NCBI GenBank assembly: GCA_051294905.1
Contig: CM119372.1
Coordinates: 4,094,001 to 4,158,000, forward strand
Length of the DNA: 64,000 nucleotides
DNA from: Botryllus schlosseri
Lineage: Eukaryota
Direction of reading: 5' to 3'
Below the pieces are notes generated by a model. It saw only the letters and a program-made list of their open reading frames with translations. It was not told where the DNA came from and did not search any database. Shown in pieces: positions 7,401 through 30,410 of the stretch. The number at the start of each line of letters is the position of its first letter. The first letter of the stretch is position 1. The position numbers were made by a program, and so were the translations under genes.

Positions 7401-8162
7401 GCTATTTAAGTTTTCACTGTATGAAGTATAGGCTTATTTTGTAGATACAGACTATATAATAGCGACTGATTTGATTGTAACTGACACAATTCCAATTGCG
7501 AAGATTTAGAATAGTATTTTGGTAAATTATGATTGCCCAGATTGAATTATTCCGATCGTTTTCTTGCGTACAGTAAAAATTAAGTAATTAATTATTAATT
7601 TCGATTTTAGATGTAGACTAGACTATATATCGTATAATTTCAATTTGTCTGACACAAATTGAACTGGTTGTTCGAAAAGGCGAAAGTAGAACAACTCAAC
7701 ATATTTTCAGCGGTCTATAAAACCGATAAGAGGAATATGATGAAAATGCCATATCATATGTGACTCAGCATCTGTTGATACTGGGCGGCGGTGTGACGTT
7801 ATTGTGAAACTGCAAAATGCAATGATAAGCAAGGGTTTTCATAAACCACAATACATTGGTTGCCAACATAATATCGATTCTTAAAGCATATGTCAGAGTT
7901 CTTCAATCCAACATCCTCAACAAATCCAACTCTCAGCTACAAATTTGGAGATGGATATGGTAAAACACTATGAAAACTTTGTACAATCCACTAAGCGAAA
8001 ATTTCAAATGAAAATATTAGAAAACCGAGGATGGAGGGAATATTTCAAGTTTATCTATGTGCTGTGCAGAGCATGCTGCTCTTTCAGAGAAAATAGTAGA
8101 TTACCACTAACCAAATGGCATAAACTTCCATCTCTATTCAATGCGAGATGAAGCTCAAGCTA

Positions 8163-9826: not shown

Positions 9827-11284
9827 GAATATACCAAAGATTATTTGCTGATATCTTTGCGGTCGAATATCCTGCAGTGATAATGTACCTCAAAACCCCA
9901 TTGGAAGTCGGATATGTCCGTCGTAAATGTCCCTCGCACTAACATAATAACAGAAAGGGAAGTCAAATTGATATAAGAACTTTACAAGAAGTGCAAAAGG
10001 ACACATATTTGAAGATTAAATTTGTAGCAAAGAATATATTTGAATTTTAAATTTTTTCTATATTTGGACCAGTGTCGAAAATTGAAGTTAATTTGCGCGG
10101 GACATTTTTTTCGATTTGTACAAAATAACTATAATTTTATTAATTTATACCAAAATGTTCATCAATTCCTGCTTTTTAGTCATAACCCTAGTGTATACCC
10201 GTTGGCAGGAACGAAACAGCACTTCGTCAGGCTCCGCAAAAAAACTTGAGTCTTGGGCTCCTATAGGGTGATAAACCGTCCCCATCACGTTGTTCGCTTT
10301 TGCCATGAAATTATTGTTGAACTGTTTAATGAGCCAGCGTGAAGTGCTCAGCTTTATATCCACAGGGTGATACAGCTTTATATCCACAGGGTGATACAGC
10401 TGTATATCCATAGGCTGATACAGCTTTACATCCACAGGGTGATACTGCTGATACAGCTCACATCCATGAATGAAAAAAGACTCTCTCCACAGGGCCCTAG
10501 TATCCCTATCAAACGAGAATCTTAAATCTGGTATTTTTGATAGGTTTCAGATTCGAATACGGATGAAAGATTCTAATTTCATATTAGGAAGGAGTTCACT
10601 GCATGGAATTTCTCCAAAGGTGTAAATAATACTTTTTACGTGATCACAAAGCACCCAACTACAAACAGTTGGTCCGAAAATTCGTATCTGCATATGGAAA
10701 ACTTGGATCAAACACGATTCATGTTAATAACTAACCTGTGTAGCTTTGTACGACATGTTTCGTATGCTGTGATACGACCAATCGAGATTTCGAGGCTGGC
10801 ACAGTGGAAAATATTATCGAAACTATAATTATCGTTGATGCATAAACTATAGAACTCTAAACGCTAAACGGCGGAACGAGCGGACTGCGGAACTTGCGAT
10901 ACTAATCGGCGGACCGAGCGGACCATGACAAAATAGCTCAATACTAAACGGCGGACCGCGGAACAGCGGAACATGTAATAGACGATTTCCACTGGCTGCG
11001 CATGGGTGGCGCCATTGTTACGAAAGGCTGGCCGAGTGTCGGATCGGAGGTTTTGATACTCCATCACTTTTGAAGGGGCGTAACGTAGGTCATTATAGTT
11101 GTAGATCTCTATATGTGACGGTGCCTACCACCGTTATTCTATTAGAAAAAGTACGCGATATGGGAAACACTTGTTAATACGATGGGAACATTATATATTT
11201 CAGATTGGAAAAATTTCGAATATCACAAAAAGCGGTTGCCAGATAATTTTAACCTGCATTTATGTCGTTTTTACCGCATAATCG

Positions 11285-14200
11285 CCATAGTGGGAAGGAC
11301 TTAGTACCCTTTTATGAATTTAAGGGGCCCTAATAACATAATAATAGCCGTTTCTTACTTCGAAACCTATCAGGAGATGGGAACCATCGACTTATATTCA
11401 GTAGATAATTATGCCTGAAATTGCCAGATAGGCCTACACGAGTTCAGATGTACCTAGACTCGATGCCGATTTTAACATCTAATAGCCGAAGAAAGGATGA
11501 CTTCTTACCCTGTTATATATACAATGGGTACTAAATAACATGTTAAAAGCCATTTCAAACTTCGGAAGATGCGTGGAGCTGAGCACCTTTGAAATATATA
11601 TTGCCGCATAATTTGTCGGAAATTGCCTAATACTCCAATTCACATGTAACAGACTTGACGTCGTTTTTAACATATAATAGCCAAAGAAGGAAGGACTTCT
11701 TACCCTGTTATGAATAAAATGGGTCCTAAATAACATCTTAAAAGCAGTTTCAAACTTCGGAAGAGGACTGGAGCTGAGAACCATCAAAATATATATTGCC
11801 GCATATTGTGTCGGAAATTGCCCAATACTCCAATTCACATGTAGCAGACTTGACGTCGTTTTAAAGATATAATAGCCAAAGAAGGAAGGACTTCTTACCC
11901 TGTTATGAATAAATTGGGTCATACATAACATCTTAAAAGCCGTTTCAAACTTCGGAAGATGCCTGGAGCTGAGAACCATCAAAATATATATTGCCGCATA
12001 TTGTGTCGGAAATTGCCTAATACTCAAATTCACATGTAGCAGACTTGACGTCGTTTTAAAGATATAATAGCCAAAGAAGGAAGGACTTCTTACCCTGTTA
12101 TGAATAAAATGGGTCCTAAATAATATCTTAAAAGCCGTTTCAAACTTCGGAATATGCCTGGAGCTGAGAACCATCAAAATATATATTGCCGCATATTGTG
12201 TCGGAAATTGCCTAATACTCCAATTCACATGTAGCAGACTTGACGTCGTTTTAAAGATATAATAGCCAAAGAAGGAAGGACTTCTTACCCTGTTATGAAT
12301 AAATTGGGTCCTAAACAACATCTTAAAAGCCGTTTCAAACTTCGGAATATGCCTGGAGCTGAGAACCATCAAAATATATATTGCCGCATATTGTGTCGGA
12401 AATTGCCTAATACTCCAATTCACATGTAGCAGATTTGAAGTCGTTTTAATGATATAATAGCCAAAGAAGGAGAGACTTCTTACCCTGTTATATATACAAT
12501 GGGTACTAAATAACATGTTAAAAGCCATTTCAAACTTCGGAAGATGCATGGAGCTGAGCATCTTTGAAATATATATTGCCGCATAATTTGTCGGAAACTG
12601 CCTAATACTCAAATTCACATGTAGCAGACTTGACGTCGTTTTAAAGATGTAATAGCCAAAGAAGGAAAGACTTCTTACCCTGTTATATATACAATGGGTC
12701 CTAAATAACATCTTAAAAGCCATTTCAAACTTCGGAAGATGCTTGGAGCTGAGCATCTTTGAAATATATATTGCCGCATAATTTGTCGGAAACTGCCTAA
12801 TACTCAAATTCACATGTAGCAGACTTGACGTCGTTTTAAAGATGTAATAGCCAAAGAAGGAAAGACTTCTAACCCTGTTATATATACAATGGGTCCTAAA
12901 TAACATCTTAAAAGCCATTTCAAACTTCGTTATATGCGTGGAGCTGAGAACCATCTAAATATATATTGCCGTATATTGCGTCGGAAATTGCCCAATACTC
13001 AAATTCACATGTAGCAGACTTGACGTCGTTTTAAAGATATAATAGCCAAAGAAGGAAGGACTTCTTACCCTGTTATGAATAAAATGGGTCCTAAATAATA
13101 TCTTAAAAGCCGTTTCAAACTTCGGATGATGCATGGAGCTGAGAACCTTTGAAATATATATTGCCGCATATTGTGGCGGATATTGCCTAATAAACCAATC
13201 CACATGCAACAGTGTTGATGTTGTTTTTATGATATAATAGCCAAAGAAGGAGAGACTTCTTACTCTGTTATGAATAGAATGGGTCCTAAATAATATTTTA
13301 AAGGCCGTATCAAACTTCGAAAGATGCCTGGAGCTGAGAACGAACGAAATATATATTGCCGCATATTGTGTCGGAAATTGCCGAATACTCAAGTTCACAT
13401 TTACCAGACTTGACGTCGTTTTAAGATGTAATCGCTAAAGAAGGAAAGATTTCTTACCCTTTTGTGAATTGAATGCGTCCTAAATAATACATAATAAGTC
13501 GTTTCAAACTTCGGCACCTATCCGGAGAAGAGAACCATCGAAATATATTTGGCGGAATATTACGCCTGAAATTGCCTAATACACGAGTTCAGATGTACCA
13601 GACTCGATGTTAATTTTAGCAGGGTTGTAATGACTCGAGTCATGACTCGACTCGAGTCAGACTCGAGTCACGATTTTCAGATGACTCGACTCGAGTCATT
13701 TTCTCAAATTACGAAAATGACTCGACTCGACTCGAGTCAATCTGTGTATTGACTCGACTTGGACTCGAGTCATTGCGCATGACTCGAAGCAAGTCATTGA
13801 CTCGAGATTCAGACGGCCAAGACCGACATTTCATTGTAATTTCGAAGCCAACACACTATTGGGATTTCTTTTGTTGGTACTGGTGTACGAAAATGCGACC
13901 AGAAACTGCTAAAAGTTAGGAAAATTGATATATTATAAATGCGCACCATTCAATATCACCAAACAGAGTTAAAAAAAAGTGGGTTTAGGAAGACTTTAAC
14001 TGGAAACTGAGCAGTCAACACAAGGACTTGGACTCGAGTCATAATACCATGACTCGGACTCGATCCTCTGTTCGCTGACTTGGACTCGGTGGGAATTGAA
14101 AATGACTCGACTTAACTCGAGCCAAAAATATAAAAGTGAGATTGACTTGTGACTCGGAGCCTAGTGACTTGGTTACAACCCTGGATTTTAGCATCTAATA

Positions 14201-14865
14201 GCCAAAGAAGGAAGGACTTCTTACCCTTATACGAATAGAAGGGGTCCTAAATGGCATTTAAAACGTCGTTTCAAACTTCGGCGCATAACCGGAGAAGAGA
14301 ACCATCGAAATATATTTAGCGGAAAATTACGCCTGAAATTGCCTATTTCACAAGCTCAGATGTACCAGACTCGATGTCGATTTTAGCATCTAATAGCCAA
14401 AGAAGGAAGGACTTCTTACCCTTATACGAATAGAAGGGGTCCTAAATGGCATTTAAAACGTCGTTTCAAACTTCGGCGCATAACCGGAGAAGAGAACCAT
14501 CGAAATATATTTAGCGGAAAATTACGCCTGAAATTGCCTATTTCACAAGTTCAGATGTACCAGACTCGATGTCGATTTTAGTATCTAATAGCCAAAGAAG
14601 GAAGGACTTCTTACCCTTATACGAATAGAAGGGGTCCTAAATGGCATTTAAAACGTCGTTTCAAACTTCGGCGCATAACCGGAGAAGAGAACCATCGAAA
14701 TATATTTAGCGGAAAATTACGCCTGAAATTGCCTATTACACAAGCTCAGATGTACCAGATTCGATGTCGATTTTAGCTTCTAATAGTTAAAGAAGGAAGG
14801 ACTTCTTACCATCTTATAAATAAAATGAATTCTAAATAACATAATAGAAGCCATTTCAAACTTCG
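11285..14865. repeat. Left arm: 195-bp tandem repeat, about 15 units, outer and inner subfamilies
   Basis: aatagcc anchor at 11871, 12066, 12261 (outer type) and 14197, 14392 (inner type): period 195. Confidence 0.95.
13620..14183. mobile_element. hAT-type MITE (CAGGGTTGT termini, GACTCGAGTC-rich), left-arm copy
   Basis: cagggttgtaa...ttacaaccctg; imperfect 8-bp TSD aattttag/gattttag from the satellite unit. Confidence 0.9.
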
Positions 14866-14963
14866 TACAATATCAGGATATCAATGAAATATTATACGAA
14901 CTGATTATCCGTCGGTTTTGGTATACTATAGACAAGGAAGAAAGGACCACTCCCCATTTCATT

Positions 14964-15222
14964 GAGAGAGATAGAGAGAGGTATGATATTCTTTTCCGCC
15001 TGCACCACGAGGTGCTTTGAAGAAGGAGTTGCGATACGGTCGTGAGTTCATCTAGTCTGCGCCCCCGTTTTTTCTCCTCTATGCTATCCGTGATTGCTGA
15101 GTGCCTAGCTGGGTAGCTGTGGATACCAATTTTCGAGTCTTTGGTATGACCCGGCTGGGGATCGGACCCACGACCTACCGATCGAGAAGCCGGACGCATA
15201 ACCATTACACTCTCCTGCTCGG
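14964..15222 (-). mobile_element. tRNA-derived SINE (Meta-domain-like centre, (CT)n tail)
   Basis: A-box agtgtaatgg, B-box-like ggtccgatccc, central gggtcataccaaagactc..ccagctaggcactcagca; copies at 35268 and 57680. Confidence 0.85.
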
Positions 15223-15443
15223 TAAGAGTAAATGCTAAGTGAGAGAGAGTAAATACTAAGCATTTTGTAACCTATTTAAGTCTTCGGAGCCTATATCTGG
15301 GTCTGGCAATAATCAGCAATTAGCATACATATCCTGGCAGCAGATAATCGTCACCAATTAACGATCCAACGAATTTAATATGCATAATGTGCCAAAAGGA
15401 ACATGATTTTTTAAAAATCCTCAGCAGATTTCCAGTCTTCACT

Positions 15444-17036
15444 CATGTCTGACAAATAGGACATAAAATACTTCCATTAACTATGTCCCGTGCGCATGCC
15501 GAGTGATATTTTCGGTTGCATCCTTGGCACCTCTCCTGCAAAACATTTTATGGTATATATATAGAAATGGTCAATGTTTCGGACAGGTGTATTTCGTTTC
15601 AATTAATCTAGCAGAGTGAATTATGGAAGGGTCATACCCAGGATGAGTCAAGCTATGATGCGTCAGCACAAAAGCTGCAGATATCGGCGATTGGATCTGA
15701 ATGTGGAATGCATAAGATTTGTTGGCATAGCTATATTACTCTCATAACAATCGAACAAACCGATTCATTGCGTATGATGTTGATCGATACAAAACTACTG
15801 TTTCCATGTTTCTAATTCGATATAGATTTCCTCACCTGATTTGTCTAATATTTGTCTGCCGATTTCGTAGCGAAATCTCCGCAGGTCAGTTTCTTTATTC
15901 GGAATGCTGGCCAATGACGAAGTTGTGTTCTTCACAACTTGTTCTGCAAACTTTTGAAAACCTGATCTATGTCTGCCACTTTGTGAAATGAAATCCAGAA
16001 TTTAGTTACCTTCGAGACATAAACGCCGCAGTTGTAACCATCTTGTTGGATGGAATGGTCGTACATTCTGATAACCCATTTCTTAGACGTCATGGATCGG
16101 CAATCGACCAACTCGCTCCGGATTCGCAGATATGTCCTAGTAGAGAAGGAATACGGTAGTATATATATATCTCTTATGTGCAATTGTTACAAGTACGGTT
16201 AAGTAAATAAAATTAAATCAGTATTCGACCTCTTTCGAACTAGTAATGGGTTGAAGCCAAATCAAACTCTCATGTGAGTGAATTAACAATATTCAATATT
16301 CCGCTGACTTACTTGAATTTCTCTGCCGCAGCTATGGTGCTTTTTTTTGTACTCCCTAGTGGATTTATCAAAGCTATTTCGGAAACTGATGTATTAATTA
16401 CCTGTAAATACATAAATGTGATTTATTGGATTTGCCGAACGATCATATACAATTCGAAATTCGTGACCAACCAACAGCATCCAGTGCTGGAACTTATTCA
16501 CTGCACCGATGATCTTGTCGTAGTGATCAAGATTCACGTGTCAAACATGTAACTGATTGCAAAGAACCGACGATGCACAATGCATTGCGATGCCATCGTT
16601 GTCGTGCGTCCAAGATCACAACGGTGTCATTTCATATTGCCTTACTAATAATCATCGTCCTGGATTTATTAATTTATTGAAATAATAGGGCTGTGTACCT
16701 TTCGCAGTGACTGCCTTCGGATTAGCTTTTCATCCGAACCGGTAATGATAAGAGTCGCTAGGAAGCTATCCAGCACATAAGTTTTTGCGTCAGCGAGCAT
16801 ATGCAGATAGTAATCAATGACCTGTGTAGTAAATAATCACCATACGAGTATAAACTGAAGTATTAGCTTCTCTTAATACTAGATTTGCAGTAGTAAATTA
16901 CATTATGATGACTTACTCCACCGCTCAGCCATTCGTCTGGACGCAGGGTTCGCAAATCTCCCATGAAGAGCGTATTTGAGGAAACATAAGCAGCTACCAT
17001 TTCCACTTTTCCTTTACTCCAAAGCAATTCTAGTTC
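15444..17036 (-). pseudogene. Spliced 3' exons of the foldback core gene: Ulp1/C48-like protease plus PHD finger
   Basis: GT-AG exons: 17036-16917 (DLRTLRPDEWLSGG), 16821-16699 (VIDYYLHML), about 16540-16472 (GAVNKFQHWMLL), 16401-16313 (LINPLG), 16136-16010 (QQDGYNCGVYV); then CSFC..W/ERCQGCNRKYHSAC..YLCPIC with a stop and a frameshift. Confidence 0.75.
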
Positions 17037-17092
17037 CTAGGGTTATAAGGTATGTTAGACAAAAGTTATCTGAAATACTGCGACGAGCTTAC

Positions 17093-18685
17093 TTCATTTT
17101 CGCCTTCACCGGTCTTTGTAGGCCTACTAGGCTCGTTATCGAATTTCAATGTTTTTGATATTTCGCCGGAGGTGAAGCAGCCAGTCTGCCTTCTTTTTCT
17201 TTTTTTGAAAGTCGACTTTACCAATTGTTGTGTTTCCTTTATCAATTTTGTTTTTCTTCTTCTTTTAAAACCGCGATGCAATAAACTATCCGCAAATATT
17301 TTAGATGAAGTCATTATTTCTTTGTGGTATTTCAAAATGAATTTGTCAATTTTACTACATCTTGTATTGTCCAAATAGATGTTTTTCAGCTCATAAAAAT
17401 GCTGCTCTATAATCCCCTGCGTGCGGTTACGATCACAAATTGATTGCAAATTATTTTTTATTCTGGCAGAGCGGATTTTCTCAAATTCACTGCCGAATTT
17501 TTGATAGGCAGCATTTGGGTAGTCGGTTCTTTTGGTGTGGCGATCAAGATTACCAAGTAAAAGTCCAGAAGTAGCACCAAGCCTTGGAAATATTACGTTT
17601 TCAATTTTGGTAAAAAAGGACTCTGAAAAATATTTGTTGGTTGTTGGCCATAATCCGCGGTCATTTCCTTCTTGATAGGTTATAGATTTTTTAAATAAAT
17701 CAAGTTTGTTCTTGTACCTCAGATGAAACGGGGATTTGTATTCTTGACTCTTGTCATGTATGATAAAATTCGCAAAGACGTCATCGTCCTTTTGATATTC
17801 ATAAAACTGATCCGGTAAATTTTTGAGGCTTTCATTTTTAGTCATATGGGATTGTAGCGCTTTGAAACTTTTTTCAACCTGGGGGGAATTTTGTCGCAGT
17901 AAGAGCACAACAAATAAGTGGCTAATGATGAGATCCATTTCATGAATAGTTGAGGCTAGAAACATCATTGCAATCCAATGCATAGCATCGCGGTAGTACT
18001 TCTTGATGTAATATCTTTTGCACATAGTGGACGCGGCCTTCATGCAGTGGCTCAAGCAGTTAACAATTAGGGTTAAACTCAAGTCACTACCCGACGCTTC
18101 ACCCGTGACTATCCGGTACACGCGATGATAGCCTAATATTGGAGTCTGGTCTCACTGCAAAAGACGGAGAGAAAAGCGTTCCATAGGGCGACAGCACCGT
18201 CAAGTATTACCAATCTCGGCACCAACTTCGTCGAGCATGCATCTCTAAAACACCCGAGAAAATATTTTATGCTCTCGGTCGTATGGCACGTTGTAACGTA
18301 GCTTGCTACCGGTATTCCTGGCAGATCTTTGTAAGGACTTCGGACCAAAATCGAATATATTTGAAAAGCTTTTCCTCCGTCCGACCGAATAATTGTCCCA
18401 GTTGAATCAAAATACAAAATGTCTTTCTGGCACAAGTCTTTGAATAATTCCAATTGAAAGGTAGTGAATAATGTCACGCTTAAAGGGCAGCCTTGCCAAC
18501 CTCTAATGAAATGTGTGCCATCTTGCTCAAATATTTTCCTCAACAACTCAATGTTTTGAAAAACATCGGAGGTCCAGCCACAAGGTAGACCAAACTTTGA
18601 GTTTATTTTTCTTAAGACATCCAATGACGGAACATATGTATGGGCTCCGGAAATCCGTTCCCTTTCGGTTTGGGCAACTTTAATC
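17093..18685 (-). pseudogene. Mutator/NOF-type DDE transposase (N-terminus apparently missing; frame broken at about 18133)
   Basis: LYFDSTGTII (D1), PGIPVA, PRLVILDGAVALWNAF (D2), NCLSHCMK (CxxH), RTQGIIEQHFYELK (E); splice donor gtaagc at 17092 links to the Ulp1 exons. Confidence 0.8.
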
Positions 18686-18809
18686 TATGGATCTATCGAG
18701 TGTACACCATCTTTGGAAAGGTTTTTGGCCCCCTCAATAACATATGCCCCAGTACAAAAATACCATGTTGAACTGATAAATTAGCAAATAATATAAGATT
18801 CATGTGTGT

Positions 18810-20418
18810 ATTCAGAAAAGGGTAAGAAGTCCTTCCTTCTTTGGCTATTAGATGTTAAAATCGACATCGAGTCTGGTACACCTGAACTCGTGTAATAGGC
18901 AATTTCAGGCGCAATTTTCTAATAAATATAATTCGATGGTTCTCTTCTCCGGATAGGTGCCGAAATTAGAAACGACGTTTTAAATGCCATTTAGGACCCC
19001 TTCTATTCGTAGAAGGGTAAGAAGTCCTTCCTTCTTTGGCTATTAGATGCTAAAATCGGCATCGAGTCTGGTACATCTGAACTCGTGTAATAGGCAATTT
19101 CAGGCGTAATATTCTAATAAATATAATTCGATCGTTCTTTTCTCCGGGTTGGTGCCGAAGTTTGAAACGAATTGTTATGTCATACTTATGACGCCTTCTC
19201 TGCATAAAAGGGTAAGACGTCCTTCCCTCTTTGGCTATTAGATGTTAAAATCGACATTGAGTCTGGTACACCTGAACTCGTGTAATAGGCAATTTCAGGC
19301 GTAATTTCCTAATAAATATAATTCGATGGTTCTCTTCTCCGGGTAGGTGCCGAAGTTTGAAACGACGTTTTAAATGCCATTTAGGACCCCTTCTATTCGT
19401 ATAAGGGTAAGAAGTCCTTCCTTCTTTGGCTATTTGATGCTAAAATCGGCATCGAGTCTGGTACATCTGAACTCGTGTAATAGGCAATTTCAGGCGTAAT
19501 ATTCTAATAAATATAATTGGATGGTTCTCTTCTCCGGGTAGGTGCCGAAGTTTGAAACGACGTTTTAAATGCCATTTCGTACCCCTTCTATTCGTATAAG
19601 GGTAAGAAGTCCTTCCTTCTTTGGCTATTAGATGCTAAAATCCAGGGTTGTTACCAAGTCACTAGGCTCCGAGTCACATGTCAATCTCACTTTTATATTT
19701 TTGACTCGAGTCAAGTCGAGTCATTTTCAATTCCCACCGAGTCAAGTCCGAGTCCAAGTCAGCGAACAGAGGATCGAGTCCGAGTCATGGTATTATGACT
19801 CGAGTCCGAGTCCAAGTCATTGTGTTGACTGCTCAGTTTCCAGTTAAAGTCTTCCTAAACCCACATTTTTAACTCTGTTTGGTGATATTGAATGGTGCGC
19901 ATTTATAATATATCAATTTTCCTAATTTTTAGCAGTTTCTGGTCGCATTTTCGAACACTAGTACCAACAAACGAAATCCCAATAGTGTGTTGGCTTCGAA
20001 ATTGCAATGAAATGTCGGTGTTGGCCGTCTGAATCTCGAGGCAATGACTTGCTTCGAGTCATGCGCAATGACTCGAGTCCAAGTCGAGTCAATACACAGA
20101 TTGACTCGAGTCGAGTCGAGTCATTTTCGTATTTTGAGAAAATGACGCGAGTCGAGTCGAGTCATCTGAAAATCGTGACTCGAGTCTGACTCGAGTCGAG
20201 TCATGACTCGAGTCATTACAACCCTGCTAGAATCGACATCGAGTCTGGTACATCTGAACTCGTGCATTAGGAAATTTCAGGCGTAATATTCCGCCAAATA
20301 TATTTCGATGGTTCTCTTCTCCGGATAGGTGCCGAACTTTGAAACGACTTATTATGTATTATTTAGGACGCCTTCTATTCACAAAAGGGTAAGAAGTCTT
20401 TCCTTCTTTAGCGATTAC
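18810..20418. repeat. Right arm, inner segment: 195-bp repeat (inner subfamily), inverted relative to the left arm
   Basis: Units are reverse complements of those at 13430-14865. Confidence 0.92.
19643..20226. mobile_element. hAT-type MITE, right-arm mirror copy of 13620-14183
   Basis: cagggttgttacc...attacaaccctg; TSD ctaaaatc/ctagaatc; same position in the arm, opposite orientation. Confidence 0.9.
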
Positions 20419-20640
20419 GGGTGGATTGCACAGATGTCGATTAATTCCTAATCGCCGATTATACGTCAGTAATCGGCTGGCTTCCGTGGCACAGATGCCG
20501 ATCTGCCACTAATCGGTGAATTTTAATCGGCCAAATGTTATCCGCCGAGCGAGGTGTCTAGAAAGTTAATCGGCTGTGTGCTTCGCGTTGACTGCGGTCT
20601 GGGCTGGCTACAGGTACACTAGTATTTGGTATTGAGATGG

Positions 20641-20792
20641 TGTAGTATTATCACTTAGCTTCTAGCTGTCTACTTAGACAGATACCTTTACAAGTCGGAT
20701 TCGAAGTGTATTCCCCACAGACCACATGCTTGTCTGTCATCAAAACAATACGGAACCCATCGCTGCTCAATCAAGCATATAATAACACCACA
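20641..20792 (-). repeat. 3' LTR, preceded on the minus strand by the polypurine tract aaaaaagggaga (20793-20804)
   Basis: Identical by eye to 25103-25254. Confidence 0.95.
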
Positions 20793-21014
20793 TCTCCCTT
20801 TTTTAGGGGAAGAGACATCGACACTACTTACATTATATACAAGTCACAATACAGCAGCGATAACAATATATACAAGGTGACACTACCCCTGCAAGGTTAG
20901 CAAGAGCAGGGCATTTACACTTAACAGACAGAGTCACCAGGGAGGTAGACTACTCCCAAGGTGTACAACAGGTTAGGGGATTATTCTGCCCCTGATCTTG
21001 AAACCTGTGTGTGA

Positions 21015-23651
21015 TCAATATTGCTCAATAAATCGTTGTGGCGGATTTCTAATTCTCGAGGATCGTCTCGCGGGGTTCTCTCCAGCAGGTTCAGTTGAAC
21101 CGTTGGCTTCTTGATGGTGTCCTGGTTTCTTCGACGCTACAAGACAATATTCGACCGGTTTATTCTGATGCGGAACAGATGGTTTTGGTTCCTCCGGAGG
21201 GTTGTACTTCCGTAAGTGTTTTCGGTTACGCCTCATTAGTCCATTGTTCGTCTCAACGATGATCGCTCTAGGATTTTCATGCATCTCCTTGATGATACCC
21301 ATCCTTTCGCAATCAGGAATGTATACATGGTCTCCAATTCCGAATCTATCATTCTCAACCACACGATGTCTTTTATTGTAACTCGCAGCCATTTTCTGTC
21401 TATACTCCGTCTCCCTTTTTCGAAGATCTTCGACATCAACAGTCTGTGGCCGTAGCTGGTCAGGATGACAAATCACCTTTGTCTTCAATCTGCGTCCCAT
21501 GCTCAATTGGGCGGGCGATAATCCGGAGTGCAAGGGCGTGTTCCTATAGTTCAGTAGCGTCAGATAGACATCATCTGTTTTCTTGAGCAGGGCCTTTATA
21601 GTTTGCACTCCTCTCTCGATGAAGCCATTACCCTGGCTATATTTTGGAGAAGAGGTTAGGTGCTGAAAATTCCAGGCTCTGGAGAACTGAGAAAATTCAG
21701 AGGAAACGAAGACCGAAGCATTGTCCGTAAGCAAGACATCACAGATGCCATGATGAGAGAACACATTCTTGAAGTGAGAAATTGTGTCCCGTGACGAGAT
21801 CGTTTTCTTTACTGAGAACAGTTCTATGTCTCTGGAGTAGTAATCCATGATCAAAAGGTAGTACTTGTCCTCCAGTTGGAAAAAATCAGCGGCAATTCTA
21901 GCCCATGGGCGTGTCGGAAATTCGGTCCCCATCGTCGGTTCAGTTCGATCTCGTCGATGCTTTTCACAGCGGTTGCAGTTGAGTACTGCATGTTCAATGT
22001 CTTTTGAATAACCCGGCCACCAGCAAGCTTGTGCTGCAAGTTGTCTGGTCTTGGTTATTCCAAGGTGCGATTGGTGAAGGTGCTTCAGAACATCTTCGCG
22101 CAACGGCGGTGGTATGACGAGTCTGTTGCTTTTCAGCAAGAGATTGTCATGTACTGTTAACACGTCTCTGAGATTCCAGAAGATACGCATCGGTCCATTT
22201 AAAGTTTCTTTGTTCTTTGGCCATCCTCCAACAACATATGTCATAACAGTCGACAGTGTCTTGTCTTCTTTAAGAGCATTCTTTATTTCTTCCAGGCGTC
22301 GGTCAGTAGCAGACAGCCCGCTGACCAGAGCACGCACACATGCTTCCGCTTCCTTGTGAAGATCGGTGTCTTCGATGCCATACGTTGTCGGCAAAGGGCA
22401 TCGTGATAGCGCGTCTGCTGTGTACATCGACTTTCCTGGCGTGTGGAAAATTGCGAAGTTATAGGACATCAGCCTAATTTTGAATCTTTGAATTCTGACA
22501 GGTAATTCGTCAAGCGATTTCGTTGAGAGCAGAGGCACTAGTGGCTTGTGGTCAGTTTCAACTTTCAGATCTTCAATACCCAGTAAGAGTTCTCTCCAGT
22601 ACTCCATTGCCCAAGTGATTGCCAAGGCCTCTTTTTCTATCTGGGCGTACCGTTGTTCAGTGTCGCTCATTGATCTGCTGGCATATGCGACCGGGCGAAG
22701 GTTATTGTCATCTTGTCTTTGCATCAGAACGGCACCAAGGCCGTAACTGCTGGAGTCAGCTGAGAGCACAGTTTCCCTGTCTGGGCAATACATGGCTAAT
22801 GTAACATCGGAAGACAGATCGCGTTTCACTCTTGCAAACGATTCCTCTTGTGACGGGCCCCAGTACCACTCAACCTTCTTCGCCAACAATTCTCGTAACG
22901 GCTTGGTCAGTTCCGCTAGGTTGGAGCTAAACTTCATGAGCTGGTTTGCCATTCCCAAGAACCTGCGAAGTTCAGTCTTATCAGTAGGAGCAGCATAATT
23001 CACAATAGCCTGCACCTTCTTTGGATCTTTGCTGATACCATCTTGGCCGATGACCTGACCGAGATATTCAAGTTCAGTTGCAGCAACGATGCATTTCTTC
23101 TCATTTAGAGTCATGCCAGAGCATTTTAGACGGTCCAATACAGCCTTCAGCGTCTCATCGTGCGTAGTTTGAGTGCCAACTACTAGGATGTCATCCATAT
23201 GGCAAATCACGTTTGGGATTCCTTGCAGGATTTCACTGATACGTTTTTGGAACGCTTCCGGTGCGCTCGAGATGCCAAATGGTAAGCGACGAAATTGATA
23301 TCTCCCAAACGGTGTGATAAACGTTGTCAACTTTCGACTTTCAGGGGCGAGCTCAATTTGATAAAATCCAGAGTTTGCGTCCAGCTTAGTGAAGACCGTC
23401 CCCTTTGACAGTTGCCCCAAAGTGCTTTCGACTGTAGGCATAGGGTACAGCTCCCTTTTTACCCCATTATTGAGCTTGGTTAGGTCTACACACAGTCGCA
23501 CCTTTCCGTCTGGTTTGGCTACGACTACGATTGGAGCACACCAATCTGTAGGTCCCGTCACTTCTTCTATGATACCGAGCTCTTCAAGCTTATCTATCTC
23601 CTCTTTGAGTTTCTGGCGCAATGGGATTGGCACACGACGTGGCAAATTCAA
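21015..23651 (-). CDS. pol: Gypsy pol: reverse transcriptase, RNase H, integrase
   Basis: VRLCVDLTKLN, KLDANSGF, LPFGISSAPE, HMDDILV, ADSSSYGLGAVL, YAQIEKEALA, TDHKPL, HQSHLG..CNRC, DFF..TDN..SQGNGFIERGVQT. Confidence 0.95.
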   Translation of the reverse strand: MNLPRRVPIPLRQKLKEEIDKLEELGIIEEVTGPTDWCAPIVVVAKPDGKVRLCVDLTKLNNGVKRELYPMPTVESTLGQLSKGTVFTKLDANSGFYQIELAPESRKLTTFITPFGRYQFRRLPFGISSAPEAFQKRISEILQGIPNVICHMDDILVVGTQTTHDETLKAVLDRLKCSGMTLNEKKCIVAATELEYLGQVIGQDGISKDPKKVQAIVNYAAPTDKTELRRFLGMANQLMKFSSNLAELTKPLRELLAKKVEWYWGPSQEESFARVKRDLSSDVTLAMYCPDRETVLSADSSSYGLGAVLMQRQDDNNLRPVAYASRSMSDTEQRYAQIEKEALAITWAMEYWRELLLGIEDLKVETDHKPLVPLLSTKSLDELPVRIQRFKIRLMSYNFAIFHTPGKSMYTADALSRCPLPTTYGIEDTDLHKEAEACVRALVSGLSATDRRLEEIKNALKEDKTLSTVMTYVVGGWPKNKETLNGPMRIFWNLRDVLTVHDNLLLKSNRLVIPPPLREDVLKHLHQSHLGITKTRQLAAQACWWPGYSKDIEHAVLNCNRCEKHRRDRTEPTMGTEFPTRPWARIAADFFQLEDKYYLLIMDYYSRDIELFSVKKTISSRDTISHFKNVFSHHGICDVLLTDNASVFVSSEFSQFSRAWNFQHLTSSPKYSQGNGFIERGVQTIKALLKKTDDVYLTLLNYRNTPLHSGLSPAQLSMGRRLKTKVICHPDQLRPQTVDVEDLRKRETEYRQKMAASYNKRHRVVENDRFGIGDHVYIPDCERMGIIKEMHENPRAIIVETNNGLMRRNRKHLRKYNPPEEPKPSVPHQNKPVEYCLVASKKPGHHQEANGSTEPAGENPARRSSRIRNPPQRFIEQY

Positions 23652-25060
23652 CAGAAGGGCTCAACGCCGTCTTTCATGTGAATAGTAAACGGCTCACCCA
23701 GTTTGCCAATGCCTTTGAATAGCTCTGGGTATGCTTTCTTGACGTCATCTTTGCTCCGCAAACGAGTCTCAGGGGTAAGTTTGACTGCCCTGATGGATAC
23801 TTGAACATCCTGGCACTCTTGAAGAAGTCCAAGTTCCAGTATAGCAGGAGCGCCAAGGAGTAGCTTATCCGCATCCGATACAATGTAGACTTTCTCTGTT
23901 AACGCCTTGAAGTCGGAGCTGAGTTTCATCCGTACAAAACCAACAGTATTGAGAGGTTGTCGATTAACTCCAATGAGCCGTCTATCAGATTTCTGTATAG
24001 GCCCATATTGTCTCTTGTACAATCGCCGCGGCATGACAGACACTTCTGCTCCAGAGTCAACAATCCATTTCAGAGTGTTGTTAACGACTCTCAACATGAT
24101 AGTCCACTGGATAGTCTTAGTAGCCTGTGCTGAACCTACCGATGCTTCTGCTTCCTGGGTTTCGCCCACACTTCCACACATTGCGTCTGGAAGTTCTTCC
24201 TCGTCATAACACTCAGCGCTTGTTTCTTCCTCAATCGTTTCGCTATCCAGCACGCATACATTTCTACTTCTGCACCTTTCCTTATAATGGCCCGTTCTAC
24301 CACATCTGTAGCATTTTACTGAGGCTGCTGGACAGAACCCTCTGCCTCTTTTGTGCCGTCGACCGCAAAATGTGCAGTTTATTATAGGCACAGTTTCAAC
24401 TGCAGGCTTCTTAAAAGTTTGAGGTCTCGCTTTGTTGGCCACCGCTTCTATTGCTGTAGGTGCAGATCTCCGATCAGCATAGCTCCTTCTCGTCTCCTGT
24501 GTAGTCACAACGTCGATAATCTTCTGAGACGTTAGCTTGTCAAAGTCGATTTCCGATAGCTTGTACAACATCTCAGAATCATCTACGCACCCGACAATAA
24601 GTTTAGCCCGAACGGTTGCGTCGTACACTGCTGGAGGAAATTGGCATTTTCGTGCAGCCTTTCTGACTGCATGTACCCAAGATGCAAATGATTCACCCTC
24701 TTTGCGTTGTAAGAAATGGAAGAATTGAAGGTGTGCTTCAAACCTGCCATCCCGAACCTTGAAACGTTCATCAAACTTCTTCAAGACGGTATCAAGGTCA
24801 GTTTTGTCTTCTGCTGCAACTGCTTCCACACCGTCTGATTCTGCGACTGCTTCAGCAAACACGAAATCCTCGTATATTTCCTTTCCTTCATTGCCTATGA
24901 ATTGCTGTAATAATCCAACTTTCTGGCGCCCAGGTGATTCAGCATGACCTGCTGCATCGATAAAGATCAGGAATTTCTTTTTCCATTCCAGCCAGGCTTC
25001 TGCCTCATTCACGGCGCCTATTATTGTGAGATCCCCCGGACCTAATACATAGGCCGCCAT
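23648..25060 (-). CDS. gag: Gypsy gag (two Zn knuckles) plus aspartic protease
   Basis: CTFCGRRH..C, CYRCGRTGHYKERC, WIVDSGAEVSV; starts at ATG just downstream of the PBS. Confidence 0.93.
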   Translation of the reverse strand: MAAYVLGPGDLTIIGAVNEAEAWLEWKKKFLIFIDAAGHAESPGRQKVGLLQQFIGNEGKEIYEDFVFAEAVAESDGVEAVAAEDKTDLDTVLKKFDERFKVRDGRFEAHLQFFHFLQRKEGESFASWVHAVRKAARKCQFPPAVYDATVRAKLIVGCVDDSEMLYKLSEIDFDKLTSQKIIDVVTTQETRRSYADRRSAPTAIEAVANKARPQTFKKPAVETVPIINCTFCGRRHKRGRGFCPAASVKCYRCGRTGHYKERCRSRNVCVLDSETIEEETSAECYDEEELPDAMCGSVGETQEAEASVGSAQATKTIQWTIMLRVVNNTLKWIVDSGAEVSVMPRRLYKRQYGPIQKSDRRLIGVNRQPLNTVGFVRMKLSSDFKALTEKVYIVSDADKLLLGAPAILELGLLQECQDVQVSIRAVKLTPETRLRSKDDVKKAYPELFKGIGKLGEPFTIHMKDGVEPFC

Positions 25061-25090
25061 AATCTAGTAATTAGGCTAGTTCGAAGTTAT

Positions 25091-25102
25091 CCGCTGCCAC
25101 CA
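25091..25102 (-). promoter_or_regulatory. Primer-binding site TGGTGGCAGCGG, complementary to a tRNA-Leu 3' end
   Basis: Directly follows the 5' LTR on the minus strand; matches the recalled ...CCGCTGCCA-CCA end of tRNA-Leu(AAG/TAG). Confidence 0.8.
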
Positions 25103-25254
25103 TGTAGTATTATCACTTAGCTTCTAGCTGTCTACTTAGACAGATACCTTTACAAGTCGGATTCGAAGTGTATTCCCCACAGACCACATGCTTGTCTGTC
25201 ATCAAAACAATACGGAACCCATCGCTGCTCAATCAAGCATATAATAACACCACA
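25103..25254 (-). repeat. 5' LTR
   Basis: Identical to 20641-20792. Confidence 0.95.
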
Positions 25255-25449
25255 GATGGTGTTAACTGGATGCTCTGACGTGCAGTTGCGGTATTAGCTG
25301 AAAACACTGTACTCAGACACTACTACAACTATTATGGGCGTGGCCCTACCACAGCCGATAGTACCTTATGCTATGATTACCGGTATGACATTTTTACAGA
25401 CTGTACTGTACACTGTACAGAATTCGATAGTATACTTTGGAAATAAAAT

Positions 25450-27177
25450 ACGAGGACGGAAAATTGCAACAGACAGGAAAAGTTTAGAATAATTGAATTG
25501 ATAGAAGAATATATTGAAACCAAAGAAGACAAAAAGACTGACGGCAAAACAAAAAGACGCGGCCTGAGATGTAATCAGTAAGAAATATGCAGCTATGAAT
25601 ACCGGTCCTGCGCGTGCAGCCGTACAACTGGCCAAATCCAGAATGTATTGAAAAATTTGAAACGAAAAGCAAAAAAGTTGTATGCATCACGACGCGTCGA
25701 ACGGGCCAAAACTGGCCCACCTCCAGTTGACGAACTCCTTGGAAAAGGTTTTCGATAGGTAATTTTACTGACAATTCTTTAAAATTCGCAGTAGGAGATG
25801 TATTGTTTCCATCTGTGTTTATCGTGACTCTCTGCGTGCTTCATACTCACGTTTTAACTCTCGTTTTGAACTGAATAGACAAATTTTGATGATCATGAGA
25901 AACATTTATTGTCTTTTTGCAATTCCCAACTAACTAACCATATCCAGAGACTGCTGCACGTCATCAGCTATACGAAAACGACACATGGGGAACACTGCTC
26001 AGCAAATTCCTAATCTGAACCGCTCCTTGATCAATCTGCAATTGATTTTTATAGCACTGGTATATTTATTATCACTTTTCAGACCTTATTCCATCTCAAA
26101 TTGAATGTTTGAAACATCGGTATGACTACGATTGCGTATTCGATAGTCACACGAACAATGGTGAGTGCATTTAGGACATAAACTTTTTTAATATGTTACA
26201 ACCAACGACAGAGGAACTTGCATCCAATTTAACTTGCAACAGTCTGGCTTTGCTACAGTGCAGGTGCCTGAGCAGTCTCGTTGGCCATATTATTGTTAGG
26301 CTTGCAACTTGACTTGAAGATTTGATTTCGAGTCAGGATTTCTCATACCGTATGTCATATTGAAGCAGTGACTCGAGTCAAATCCATTCATCCTATTCCA
26401 ACTCGAGTCAAGTCATGATTTTAGTCATCCATCCTTCCTATGTGTCGCGAGGTTAAGATAAACCGTGAAAAAATAATTTGAAAGTAACTTTTCTAATGTA
26501 TTTCTTACTAAAATTTTTAAATAAAATGTTTATTCAGATGCATATTCCGAAGATTCAGTTTGCATCTTCATCATCGACGAGGATGTGAACACAGAGGCTG
26601 GTTCTTCATGTCACAACAGCGATGGTAAGTTGAGGTACTAATTTGAAATCCATATGAATCGTGTTGGTACTAACATAGCCACACGAATACTTCAAATAGA
26701 ACATTGCTGGTTGTTTAACATTGCTCTATTGAATTTGAACTCTATTGAATCAATACAACTGTTGTTAACCATAGTTTTCTTGCAGCAAATGAAATTGCTG
26801 CCTATTTCGTTGTTGATGGCGATGTGACGCTTTCTTCAGTTCCCTCGACAGACTTCAGGATGGAACACCAGACCGGTAAGTGTTAGCATACAATGATGGT
26901 GATGCAACCCACAGTTTATTCATTGCTACATTCAGATATGCAAGATAAAACAGAGAACACAAAAAGCTCAACGCCAATTGTCTCGAAAAAGAGAGCCAGG
27001 TGTGTTGATGAAAAAAATCATATTTTAACTATAATGTTGGTGATCAAAATGTGGTGTTCGGAAATGAGCGTCCTGGAAATGGCAAAGGAGCAACATGATA
27101 TCAGAATGAAATATTTTAAATTACAGATGCATGTCAAGTACCAGAAACTGGAAATGGAAAAAGAACTGCAAAATTGA
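25450..27177 (+). pseudogene. Harbinger Myb/SANT-like DNA-binding protein, spliced and degenerate
   Basis: QEKFRIIELIEEYIETKEDKKTD..AA*DVISKKY..R..VQL..Y*KNLKRKAKK..KTGPPP (W codons mutated to stops); putative small exons near 26538 and 26786; coiled-coil C-terminus EMAKEQHDIRMKYFKLQM. Confidence 0.75.
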
Positions 27178-27599
27178 GAAAATACAGCAACGAATCGAAA
27201 TAGCACAAAAACCAGACTTGGACAACTAGTTAATTGGCTGTATAATTAGAATAGTAAGTGCAAAATGCCAGTAATATAATTCTAACTTAATTTCTGGTTT
27301 TGCTGAAAATTCTACGGTAGAACTCTACAATACTAAGCGAGTTGTGCAGATTCAATTTCCAAATTTTCACATATTCAGTAATCCCTATTCTAATTTAATT
27401 GAAAAATAACTACTGTCTATAATTCTATTCTAATTTGGAAAAATATGCAGCCATAATTATCATTATAGTCTAATTTTGAAAAGCTGATTTACTAGTTGTC
27501 CAATTCTGACTACAGCATGGGCTACTGGATCTCGTAATAAAAATAATTGACGAGGAATTGAATGTGTGGTTATTGGTGTTCAAACACGAGATGAAATAC

Positions 27600-27770
27600 T
27601 CAAGACATTCCAGAGAAGTGATTTTGAACAATCTGTCTGCGCTGAAGTCGTGCTCGGTTGTGTTGTGCCGTCATGTTATCGGTGTCTTTGACCAATCTTC
27701 TTGGCACTCTCTCTTCTGCTAGGCTCTCTAACATCTGGAGGGTAGCAAGAACATTGAGGTATGGATCCAT
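27600..27770 (-). pseudogene. Internally deleted Harbinger transposase (N-terminus fused to C-terminus)
   Basis: MDPYLNVLATLQMLESLAEERVPRRLVKD joined to RARLQRRQIVQNHF*, resembling HARBI1-type termini; convergent with the Myb gene. Confidence 0.55.
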
Positions 27771-28666
27771 TGTTATTCTCAGTCGATATTGCACTATATT
27801 AATGTAGCTCTCTATTCTATAAAACAGGTTGTATTGAATTTTATGGTTGACCAAATTCTTGATAAACTGAAGTGAGGTTTGGCTGTCAACAAACAAGATT
27901 ACTCAACTGGGTAACAGCAGATAACTTTGCATTGCAAAATTGTAACATAAATGCATTACTGTTTGTACAGCACTTGAGCACATTGCACAACAGTTAGATC
28001 CTTGCAATGGCTGAAATTTACTTCTACATTCCTGCAGAGCCAATTGTCATTGGTATGGAGAAATCAAAATCGTATGCAAATGTGCGTGTATGAACTCAAT
28101 TTGTATATCTTCACATTGGTGAAGCGGCTATCATGACTAATGCACCAATAAACGGAAAATATAATTATATCTGAAAAGTATCTATCTAGTTCTAGATATC
28201 CCTGAGTAATGAGATAAATGTCCTGCAATATACGAAATTTGTGATAGAGTTTCTGGCATAGCAATACCGGTAGACGATGATTTTGGTACGCTATTCCTAC
28301 AACACCTCTTTTCATAACCTCAAAACGTTTGTTCTGACGCGTTCTGGCGTTCATAACCTTACACTGTGCAGTAGCAACAGTTTAGTTGGCTGCTATACGC
28401 ACATGACATCAACTAAACATACATATCTATGAAGAGCGCATCTCTCCCTCATGACGACACAGTTCATATCGCCACCGACCGAAAACAGCTGATTGCTAAC
28501 GTACGTCATTTGCGTCGATTTGCGTCAGTAATCCGCGATAAGATAACTCACAGGCGAATCCGTATCTGTACCACAGAGTCACCAGGTGACCTTGCTCGCT
28601 GATTAAATTATCGCCGATTAAGGCAATCGGTGATTACTTTTCAATCGGCATCCGTGCAATCCACCC

Positions 28667-30410
28667 TACATCTTAAAAACGACGTCAAGTCTGGTAAATG
28701 TGAACTGGAGTATTCGGAAATTTCCGACACAATATGCGGCAATATATATTTCGTTCGTTCTCAGCTCCAGGCATCTTTCGAAGTTTGATACGGCCTTTAA
28801 CATATTATTGAGGACCCATTCTATTCATAACAGAGTAAGAAGTCCCTCGTTCTTTGGCTATTATACCATAAAAACAACATCAACTCTGGTGCATGTGGAT
28901 TGGTTTATTAGGCAATATCCGACACAATATGCGGCAATATATATTTCGATGGTTCTCAGCTCCAGGCATCTTCCGAAGTTTGAAACGGCTTTTAAGATGT
29001 TGTTTAGGACCCAATTTATTCATAACAGGGTAAGAAGTCTCTCCTTCTTTGGCTATTATATCTTTAAAACGACGTCAAGTCTGTGAATTGGAGTATTGCG
29101 CGATTTCCGACACAATATGCAGCAATATATATTTTGATGGTTCTCAGCTCCAGGCATCTTCCGAAGTTTGAAACGGCTTTTAAGATGTTATTTAGGACTC
29201 ATTTTATTCATAACAGGGTAAGAAGTCCTTCCTTCTTTGGCTATTAAATCTTTTAAACGACGTCAAGTCTGCTACATGTGAATTGGAGTATATTAGGCAA
29301 TTTCCGACACAATATGCGGGAATATATATTTTGATGGTTCTCAGCTCCAGGCATCTTCCGAAGTTTGAAACGGCTTTTAAGATGTTGTTTAGGACCCAAT
29401 TTATTCATAACAGGGTAAGATGTCTCTCCTTCTTTGGCTATTATATCTTTAAAGCGACGTCAAGTCGGTGAATTGGAGTATTGCGCGATTTCCGACACAA
29501 TATGCGGCAATATATATTTTGCTGGTTCTCAGCTCCAGGCATATTCCGAAGTTTGAAACGGCTTTTAAGATGTTGTTTAGGACCCAATTTATTCATAACA
29601 GGGTAAGAAGTCTCTCCTTCTTTGGCTATTATATCTTTAAAACGACGTCAAGTCTGCTACATGTGAATTGGAGTATTAGGCAATTTCCGACACAATATGC
29701 GGCAATATATATTTTGATGGTTCTCAGCTCCAGGCATATTCCGAAGTTTGAAACGGCTTTTAAGATGTTATTTAGGACCCATTTTATTCATAACAGGGTA
29801 AGAAGTCCTTCCTTCTTTGGCTATTATATCTTTAAAACGACGTCAAGTCTGCTACATGTGAATTTGAGTATTAGGCAATTTCCGACACAATATGCGACAA
29901 TATATATTTTGATGGTTCTCAGCTCCAGGCATCTTCCGAAGTTTGAAACGGCTTTTAAGATGTTATGTAGGACCCAATTTATTCATAACAGGGTAAGAAG
30001 TCCTTCCTTCTTTGGTTATTATATCTTTAAAACGACGTCAAGTCTGCTACATGTGAATTTGAGTATTAGGCAATTTCCGACACAATATGCGGCAATATAT
30101 ATTTTGATGGTTCTCAGCTCCAGGCATATTCCGAAGATTGAAATGACTTTGTAAATGTTAGCTAAGACCCTTTTCATCCATAACAGGGCAGGAAGTCATC
30201 CCTACTTCGGCTATTAGATGTTAAAATCGGCATCGAGTCTAGGTACATCTGAACTCGTGTAGGCCTATTTGGCAATTTCAGGCATAATTATCTACTGAAT
30301 ATATGTCGATGGTTCCCATCTCCTGATAGGTTTCGAAGTTTGAAACGGCTATTATTATGTTATTAGGGCCCCTTAAATTCATAAAAGGGTACTAAGTCCT
30401 TCCCACAATG
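28667..30410. repeat. Right arm, outer segment: 195-bp repeat, about 9 units
   Basis: Reverse complement of the 11285-13430 units; two units carry the same short deletion (near 29082 and 29467). Confidence 0.93.

Follow-up and report, generated by a model that had tools for sequence, protein, structure and literature searches.

Probable arm-to-arm copying of a nested MITE

A 64,000-nucleotide stretch of Botryllus schlosseri DNA (contig CM119372.1, positions 4,094,001 to 4,158,000; the window) contains a Mutator-like foldback transposon with the same hAT-type MITE at mirrored positions of its two inverted arms. The sequence supports well a history in which the MITE was inserted once and was then copied between the arms, to which a probability of roughly 90% is assigned. 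The two copies occupy the identical site, share a common descent and stand in mirrored flanks, and the copied stretch has a definable inner limit.

The left copy (13620..14183, forward strand; 564 bp) is flanked by a duplicated target at 13612-13619 and 14184-14191, and the right copy (19643..20226, reverse strand; 584 bp) by one at 20227-20234 and 19635-19642. In inverted orientation they are 93.5% identical over 586 columns, which bears out the exact coordinates of the original prediction. A global alignment yielded 14 substitutions among 562 aligned bases (2.5%, 95% CI 1.4-4.1) and four indels, in line with the several substitutions and short indels that had been claimed. The 11-bp terminal inverted repeats (CAGGGTTGTAA) match fully in the left copy and at 10/11 in the right one; those of hAT MITEs measure 5-27 bp (available text of PMC3517528). 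No open reading frame of at least 120 amino acids was found in the MITE (564-584 bp).

When all inserts were removed in silico, both MITEs occupied the identical base of the first inner-type unit of their arm (L12 and R10), as had been predicted, with identical orientation relative to the arm. These two units are each other's nearest relatives (eight differences). The target duplication is of the 8-bp hAT type, 7 of 8 letters agreeing across each copy. Its inner side reads GATTTTAG at both copies and its outer side AATTTTAG in the left and GATTCTAG in the right arm, with one distinct change in each; the earlier claim of a same target duplication thus holds for the site but not for the letters. 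A third, distant family member, used as an outgroup (50379..50937, reverse strand), differs from the arm copies by 79/503 and 87/517 substitutions (15.7% and 16.8%) and 18-19 indels. The comparison that had been proposed, arm-to-arm divergence against divergence from this copy, thus gave 2.5% versus about 16%, the arm MITEs being far closer to each other. The 14 substitutions were polarised, 13 by the 50379 copy and one by the family majority, into seven private to the left and seven private to the right copy.

The host foldback element

The host (11127..30569) has symmetric ends (ACCACCG...CGGTGGT) and a perfect 8-bp target duplication (CGGTGCCT; 11119-11126 and 30570-30577), beyond which the outer flanks differ; a 4-bp TATA or ATAT duplication considered for these ends was dropped in their favour. 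Its left arm (11127..14880, forward strand) consists of a 224-bp unique tip and 15 whole 195-bp-type units, namely an outer unit (L01), the A type (L02-L09), boundary units (L10-L11) and the inner B type (L12-L15). The right arm (18807..30569, reverse strand) comprises the tip and units R01-R14, an array interrupted by the MITE and a Harbinger-like insert, with R14 truncated at about 18807. Unit numbers and unit types are unlike between the arms. Long inverted ends with tandem repeats are the layout of Rehavkus/MULE hosts. The duplication has 8 bp instead of the 9 bp of Rehavkus, and falls inside the 8-11 bp range of MULEs (available text of PMC6446971).

A remnant of the host transposase gene (17066..18753, reverse strand) is frameshifted near 18140 and lacks the part matching residues 1-867 of a 2074-aa relative, the match starting at residue 868. 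The cut in R14 lies at most about 55 bp from that start. Look-alikes of the transposase in the atlas were MULE clusters, the best at 0.94, in which 19% of members carry the family, and 95 relatives were found at E<=0.001. Relatives bear UCH and Ulp1 domains, Peptidase_C48 among them; weak PHD matches that stay under the Pfam cut-off occur in three of the nine relatives scanned, and the corresponding part is absent from the window copy. No Pfam MULE match was obtained on the window pieces or on the nine relatives, and word-index protein searches with two host transposase pieces returned nothing. Downstream coding pieces (15300..17060, reverse strand) carry motifs that, read by eye, look Ulp1-protease-like and that Pfam did not confirm. 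Pfam over 16 small pieces and nine read-through frames of the window gave no meaningful match.

Extent of the copied stretch

The MITE lies within a mirrored boundary block, of which the left part (L10, L11 and L12 with the MITE; 13113..14268, forward strand) has the nearest relative of each unit in the opposite arm. Its right counterpart begins with an inner part (inner R09 and the MITE-bearing R10; 19558..20418, reverse strand) and resumes at 28670-28985. Divergence over L10, L11 and L12 is 6.2%, 2.6% and 3.9%, respectively, with 12 differences between L10 and R08 and five between L11 and R09. In two columns the letters of L12 and R10 match and differ from those of all seven other inner units. 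The MITE-bearing units thus combine a shared insertion with co-transferred flanking markers, as gene conversion leaves behind.

The inner limit of the copied tract falls between 14184 and 14283 (27/956 versus 14/195 differences, p=0.005). Beyond it, each of L13-L15 has at least 14 mismatches in 195 bases to its closest right-arm unit, and 25-29 differences separate R12 and R14 from the remaining right units. Outwards, no edge was seen between the MITE tract and the arm tips (27/956 versus 8/222, p=0.51; 2.5-2.8% versus 3.6%). Since the MITE copies do not significantly exceed the arm tips in similarity, a conversion tract confined to this locus is not shown; copying of a whole arm, or a donor already bearing both MITEs, fits the divergence equally well. 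The six mirrored segments were heterogeneous (p=0.002), and homogeneity (p=0.62) was reached only by a post hoc trim of two stretches, after which divergence from tip to MITE was roughly uniform, near 3%. Both trimmed stretches resemble exchange with tandem neighbours. The original prediction had one arm templated from the other by gene conversion or foldback repair; a single, copied insertion is upheld, while conversion, template switch and flip-plus-crossover leave the same picture and no local tract is seen.

The MITE family in public contigs

Four of the nine contig runs listed were used (X1, X2, X5 and X6), all consisting of short contigs; X1 and X2 represent one sample, perhaps the window's own source. 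Allele shares are summed contig depths at the 40 of 100 places listed, and some MITE places sit in its internal repeats, where contigs may be misplaced. Among the places listed, 23 fall in the MITE: the arm copies agree at 18 and differ at four, and one was dropped (indel). At 15 of the 18 agreeing places, the majority of the X1 family depth has a different letter, in five of them at least 92% of it. At place 13944 the other letter accounts for 99.75% (X1), 99.96% (X5) and 99.87% (X6) of the depth, so that the allele common to both arm MITEs is held by at most 0.25%. Similarly, a 10-bp stretch near 13847 is absent from both arm copies and present in the 50379 copy and in loose ends of all four runs. 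Such sharing might also stem from a rare sub-lineage that carries these alleles elsewhere in the genome.

The family is of high copy number, X1 depth being 0.6-4.6 million over the MITE versus 208-28349 over its flanks. Each MITE end had 255-466 loose-end contigs (X1, X2 and X5), whose flanks agree at only 0.34-0.37, indicating many different insertion sites. No sister foldback with zero or one MITE was demonstrated in the short contigs of the four runs. A joint from 13611 to 14184 that skips the MITE (two contigs in X1, one each in X2 and X6) is equally well explained by ordinary inner units, which also fit X5 record 18, an empty unit with 18 other letters considered as an empty boundary unit. 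X5 record 17 overlaps the Harbinger-like site by 17 letters, too few for a call. In X1, the two letters private to L12 and R10 reach a depth of about 191, the range among single listed contigs being 42-136. The number of such arms may accordingly be small; since depth does not equal copy number and the X2 counts are incomplete, the figure was not used as evidence.

Target-site preference

The occupied site matches the rough flank consensus of the family at 7 of 8 positions, and the empty homologous A-type sites score likewise. Positions scoring at least as well number 101 in the left arm, 82 in the right arm and 366 in the whole element. The homologous site is present in every unit and empty everywhere except in the mirrored pair. 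The idea that the site is disfavoured was dropped, as its score of 5/8 came from a one-sided consensus and both the other strand and a symmetric consensus give 7/8. Compared with the hAT Buster target consensus nnnTAnnn, the flank consensuses are AT-rich centred at 0.35 agreement, and the occupied site has TT at its centre. A strong genome-wide preference for this site had been named as a possible objection to copying; given hundreds of different flanks and 82-101 equal targets per arm, there is no strong one as far as the contigs allow.

In the neighbouring unit, the Harbinger-like insert is offset from the MITE's unit phase by no more than about 6 bp (roughly 7% by chance), hinting at a mild hot spot. 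A bolder version, which we regard as improbable, would make one phase of the nucleosome-sized 195-bp unit an insertion hot spot and whole-arm re-copying the process that renders guests heritable in both ends; Mutator-like foldback arms would then trap and duplicate such guests, and an element with two MITEs would have passed through at least one host transposition.

Alternative explanations

Two separate insertions could have produced the pair if the MITE hopped locally into the mirrored site, or if two members of one young sub-lineage entered a phase-specific hot spot. Local hopping is well established for hAT elements and would account for the rare alleles common to both copies; the loose target match of the occupied site and the near-coincident phase of the Harbinger-like insert would suit a hot spot. 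Against this stand the hundreds of equally good targets in the element and the vacancy of the homologous site in all other units. A local hop must additionally hit the mirrored orientation, for a chance of about 1 in 160-200 if confined to the arm, and of about 1 in 28 if only the homologous phase in 14 units was open to it. We consider two insertions very unlikely. Marginally less so is a composite element, in which the right arm came from the same-side arm of another MITE-bearing copy, or arose when a foldback duplicate of the left arm was joined to the interior at 18807, one event duplicating the MITE and removing the front of the transposase. Such an event would explain why the last right unit is cut so close to the start of the transposase match (residue 868 of 2074) and why trimmed divergence is so even from tip to MITE, and a TIR1-F1-F1-TIR2 model exists (available text of PMC3573991). 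It sits poorly with the arm-specific inner units past the MITE: their diversity predates the 3% event, which gives the right inner array a native look, and an extra turnover step is required in the left arm.

A palindromic chimera of assembly or library, doubling one arm, is scarcely credible. Long inverted and tandem repeats are difficult to assemble, and no contig piece among those listed covers the whole stretch; yet the MITEs are separated by 14 evenly polarised substitutions and four indels, the arms differ in unit numbers and types, and the host has a perfect target duplication between unlike outer flanks.

Other insertions and proposed history

Only the right arm carries the Harbinger-like insert (20419..28666), at a distance of 189 bases outward from the right MITE and with a 3-bp duplication (TAC), ends GGGTGGATTGCAC (13 bp perfect, 22 of the first 24 letters alike) and a decayed interior. 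The left arm represents its empty site, with a single TAC, confirming the claim that this insertion was not copied. A 3-bp target duplication with terminal inverted repeats is the pattern of PIF/Harbinger elements; these usually prefer TWA targets, which TAC does not match. By eye, the interior bears some likeness to Harbinger DDE transposase and Myb-like protein motifs, and the class found no support in Pfam, the atlas or a homolog search (one frame, word index). Nested within it is an LTR retrotransposon with Gypsy-like domain order (20641..25254, reverse strand; 5-bp duplication GATGG), whose LTRs (20641-20792 and 25103-25254) are identical (152/152). The Harbinger-like insert, said to give an order of events, probably postdates the MITE copying, an order that is likely rather than proven.

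Based on these data, a hAT-type MITE would have landed once in one arm of the Mutator-like foldback, in the first 195-bp unit of inner type. Homology-based copying between the inverted arms would then have brought the MITE to the mirrored position together with the duplicated target and the flanking unit, most likely when a break in the arm without a MITE was repaired from the MITE-bearing arm, or through a replication template switch; conversion, template switch and flip-plus-crossover are indistinguishable here. On the inner side of the MITE the copied stretch would stop after at most about 100 bp, and outward it may reach as far as the arm tip. With divergence in the arm tips about equal to that of the MITE, the odds are about even that copying took place in the window's own copy or in its donor element. 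As to its direction, diagnostic columns point both ways. Afterwards, each MITE would have mutated independently (seven changes each) and the arrays would have been rearranged by tandem exchange; the Harbinger-like element probably followed, with the LTR element last.

Comparison with known foldback elements

Comparisons in this section refer to the available sections of the papers cited. In Galileo of Drosophila willistoni, the third pattern of TIR extension is a transposable element that was inserted in one long TIR and became part of both (PMC4168063); the copying process is thus already published, and no new mechanism is proposed here. The elements shared by both Galileo arms are P, 1360 and Mar (PMC4168063), the last being a hAT MITE whose ends measure 11 bp and whose duplications measure 8 bp (PMC3517528). 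Galileo arms also contain tandem repeats, as do those of the present host, but Galileo is classed in the P-superfamily (PMC4168063) and the host is Mutator-like. Furthermore, the Galileo pieces are fragments of 36-202 bp reported within transposing copies (PMC4168063), whereas the window has a whole MITE of 564-584 bp with both target copies, which makes site and age readable, in a pair that may or may not have moved with its host. For Galileo of D. mojavensis, repair of a broken TIR from the opposite TIR by non-allelic recombination or conversion has been proposed, the same mechanism as that considered here, except that internal sequence was recruited into the TIR instead of a nested MITE (PMC3573991).

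The Mutator-related Rehavkus group shares with the host the foldback layout and the tandem repeats in long inverted ends (PMC6446971; bioRxiv 10.1101/2024.12.02.626372). The host differs in its 8-bp instead of 9-bp duplication, arms of more than 3 kb and missing transposase front. The foldback Tetris of D. virilis has arms of about 220-bp tandem units with signs of homogenisation (PMC4079207), and in ISWpi1 one TIR was converted into the other (PMC3004938); the available text of neither paper reports a nested element copied between arms. A literature search of partial coverage found no report of such copying in a Rehavkus-like host.

The window provides an unusually readable record of the way in which foldback transposons keep their long inverted ends similar. 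Copying carried a complete 0.57-kb guest and its target duplication over several kilobases, and the mutations in both MITE copies date the copying relative to three other insertions. The Galileo pattern, described for a P-type element, is now extended to a Mutator-like host. It also calls for caution, as arm-to-arm divergence dates the last copying and not necessarily the insertion of the element.

The host foldback transposon and neighbouring repeats

The host of the two MITE copies is a foldback DNA transposon (11127-30569), of which the symmetric ends (ACCACCG...CGGTGGT) and the perfect flanking 8-bp duplication CGGTGCCT indicate that it entered its present site as a single unit. Both arms start with a unique tip of 224 bp and continue as tandem units of 195 bp, namely 15 whole units in the left arm (L01-L15, numbered tip inward) and 14 in the right arm (R01-R14), later inserts set aside. 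The unit corresponds to 65 codons, and one frame is open over 491 codons at 11479-12954 (minus strand) and 233 codons at 29453-30154 (plus strand), probably as a by-product of tandem repetition. A broken transposase gene lies on the minus strand between the arms. One piece of it grouped with MULE clusters in the atlas, and a full HMMER search retrieved 95 relatives; among nine relatives scanned, five contained UCH, three Ulp1, and three a weak PHD finger. The match with a 2074-aa relative begins at residue 868, residues 1-867 being without counterpart. At 18753-18807, the last unit of the right arm is cut short and abuts the middle of the transposase gene almost directly; the distance between this cut end and the start of the match is about 55 bp. 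The element behaves like a Rehavkus-type Mutator element but, set against Rehavkus by descriptions only, it was not filed as a member, as its target duplication is 8 bp instead of 9 bp.

Just inside the left arm, a dispersed repeat of about 300 bp (about 14930-15235; relatives at 35267-35531, 88% alike, and 57681-57867) looks by eye like a tRNA-derived SINE. Elsewhere in the window, a 477-aa reverse-transcriptase frame (6000-7433, minus strand; Pfam RVT_1), with a GIY-YIG-like tail by eye and a second copy at 47312-47903 (79% alike), suggests a Penelope-like element, and a PX-domain exon (48951-49358, minus strand) likely belongs to a host sorting-nexin gene. Hairpin-like repeats of 0.5-0.8 kb were found at 5396-6005, 47990-48471, 58708-59324, and 8163-8967 (halves 4.5-13% diverged), besides 25 telomere-like GGTTA copies (9517-9652), a 169-bp satellite (62677-64000) continuing past the window end, and a 39-bp minisatellite (2697-3094).

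Common origin of the two MITE copies

As originally noted, inverted MITE copies (13620-14183, plus strand; 19643-20226, minus strand) lie at an identical base of the first inner-type unit in both arms (L12 and R10). Both have 11-bp ends and the 8-bp target GATTTTAG; the target duplications are identical apart from one differing change per arm in the outer copy. Judged by ends, target length, size, and abundance, the criteria being those in an excerpt of PMC3517528, the MITE can be assigned to the hAT type; no transposase partner was detected. The substitutions and short indels between the arm copies amounted to 14 per 562 bases (2.5%) and four, respectively, versus 15.7% and 16.8%, with 18-19 indels, towards the third copy (50379-50937, minus strand). 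Short related remnants occur at 59743-59862, 39865-39938, 40309-40367, and 26369-26414, one of them inside the Harbinger-like insert of the right arm.

Contigs from four of nine listed public runs were aligned to 13250-14290, two of these runs (X1 and X2) representing one sample, possibly of the same source as the window. The MITE family is very abundant, depth in X1 being 0.6-4.6 million over the MITE versus 208-28349 over its flanks, and 255-466 contigs ran off each end in X1, X2, and X5, with a flank agreement of only 0.34-0.37. Of 23 positions listed within the MITE, 18 have the same letter in both arm copies and four do not; one, located in an indel, was dropped. The X1 family majority has another letter at 15 of the 18 agreed places, at five of them by at least 92%, and at position 13944, in the unique middle, the other letter makes up 99.75-99.96% of the depth in X1, X5, and X6, shares that are rough because they are summed contig depths over 40 of 100 places. 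Similarly, a 10-bp stretch near 13847 is absent from both arm copies and present in the third copy and the loose ends of all four runs. These features nevertheless show that both copies descend from one unusual family member, each having gained seven private changes since.

Extent of the copied stretch

Around the MITE, each unit of the mirrored pairs L10/R08, L11/R09, and L12/R10 has its closest relative in its partner, and L12 and R10 have two letters in common that none of the other seven inner units contains. Divergence is 27/956 (2.8%) over L11, L12, and the MITE and rises to 7-16% inward from 14283 (p = 0.005 for the next unit), indicating that copying stopped no more than about 100 bp inward of the MITE. 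No outward limit was seen, the unique tips differing at 8/222 positions (3.6%, p = 0.51). Two outer units diverge more (18/201 and 12/195), much of the excess lying where their sequence resembles tandem neighbours; L01, for instance, has an end that matches L06 at every column tested. Once these stretches are trimmed, post hoc, a single rate near 3.2% fits all six segments (p = 0.62, versus p = 0.002 untrimmed). Most simply, a single event would have rendered the two arms identical between the tip and a point just inward of the MITE; it may have been a long repair tract within the present copy or birth from a donor with the MITE in both arms, the data favouring neither. Further outward, L04/R03 and L05/R04 (11943-12332 versus 29559-29948) each differ at 2/195 positions, less than from units of their own arm, possibly through a later, smaller inter-arm exchange.

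Alternative origins and mechanism

Two insertions at the mirrored site, by a local hop or a mild hot spot, are highly improbable. A local hop could account for the alleles common to both copies, but would need mirrored unit, base, and orientation all to match. A mild hot spot is favoured by the position of the Harbinger-like insert, within about 6 bp of the unit phase of the MITE in the neighbouring unit (13428 / 20416-20418 versus 13612-13619; about 7% by chance), and a phase-specific hot spot in the 195-bp unit is possible. The MITE flank consensus, from contig loose ends, forms a loose, AT-rich palindrome. On its symmetric version the occupied site reaches 7/8, a score shared by the empty homologous sites in the A-type units (L02-L09). 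Since scores at least as high occur at 101 positions of the left arm, 82 of the right arm, and 366 of the whole element, the site is acceptable to the MITE, not special. Also attractive is a composite origin, by which the element would have acquired a left-type arm at 18807 and lost the transposase front; the inner units of the right arm, which are old and arm-specific, contradict it and make it very unlikely.

One insertion followed by arm-to-arm copying is well supported, as predicted; the route may have been gene conversion or foldback repair. A break in one arm may have been repaired with the opposite arm as template; copying over the 0.57-kb heterology requires flanking homology on both sides, which the 195-bp units provide. 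A replicative template switch would yield the same product, as would a crossover that inverts the interior and is then followed by allelic exchange. For Galileo, an excerpt of Marzo et al. (PMC3573991) proposes repair of a broken long inverted repeat from its partner.

Order of events

The Harbinger-like insert (20419-28666; 3-bp duplication TAC, short inverted ends) is located outward of the right MITE at a distance of 189 bp, and the left arm holds its empty site. The arms are closely alike on either side of the insert (2/120 and 3/71 differences), so that it most likely postdates the copying. Alternatively, the copied tract stopped within the 189-bp gap, or the insert was cleanly excised from the left arm, clean excision being known for the Harbinger class. 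Its interior is strongly decayed, without an ORF of 120 aa, and the insert could thus be older than assumed; Pfam, atlas, and homolog protein searches gave no support for the Harbinger class. The predicted order, copying before insertion, is probable. The youngest event is the LTR element nested in the insert (20641-25254, minus strand): its 152-bp LTRs are identical, its target duplication is 5 bp, and its open frames are long.

Relation to known cases

The well-supported arm-to-arm copying of the MITE is a further instance of a process already known. For Galileo, Goncalves et al. (PMC4168063) describe other TEs that, having inserted in one long terminal inverted repeat, came to belong to both, their examples including the hAT MITE Mar. 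In contrast with Galileo, the present host is Mutator-like, and the whole MITE and its target duplications were kept, making this case a tidy example.
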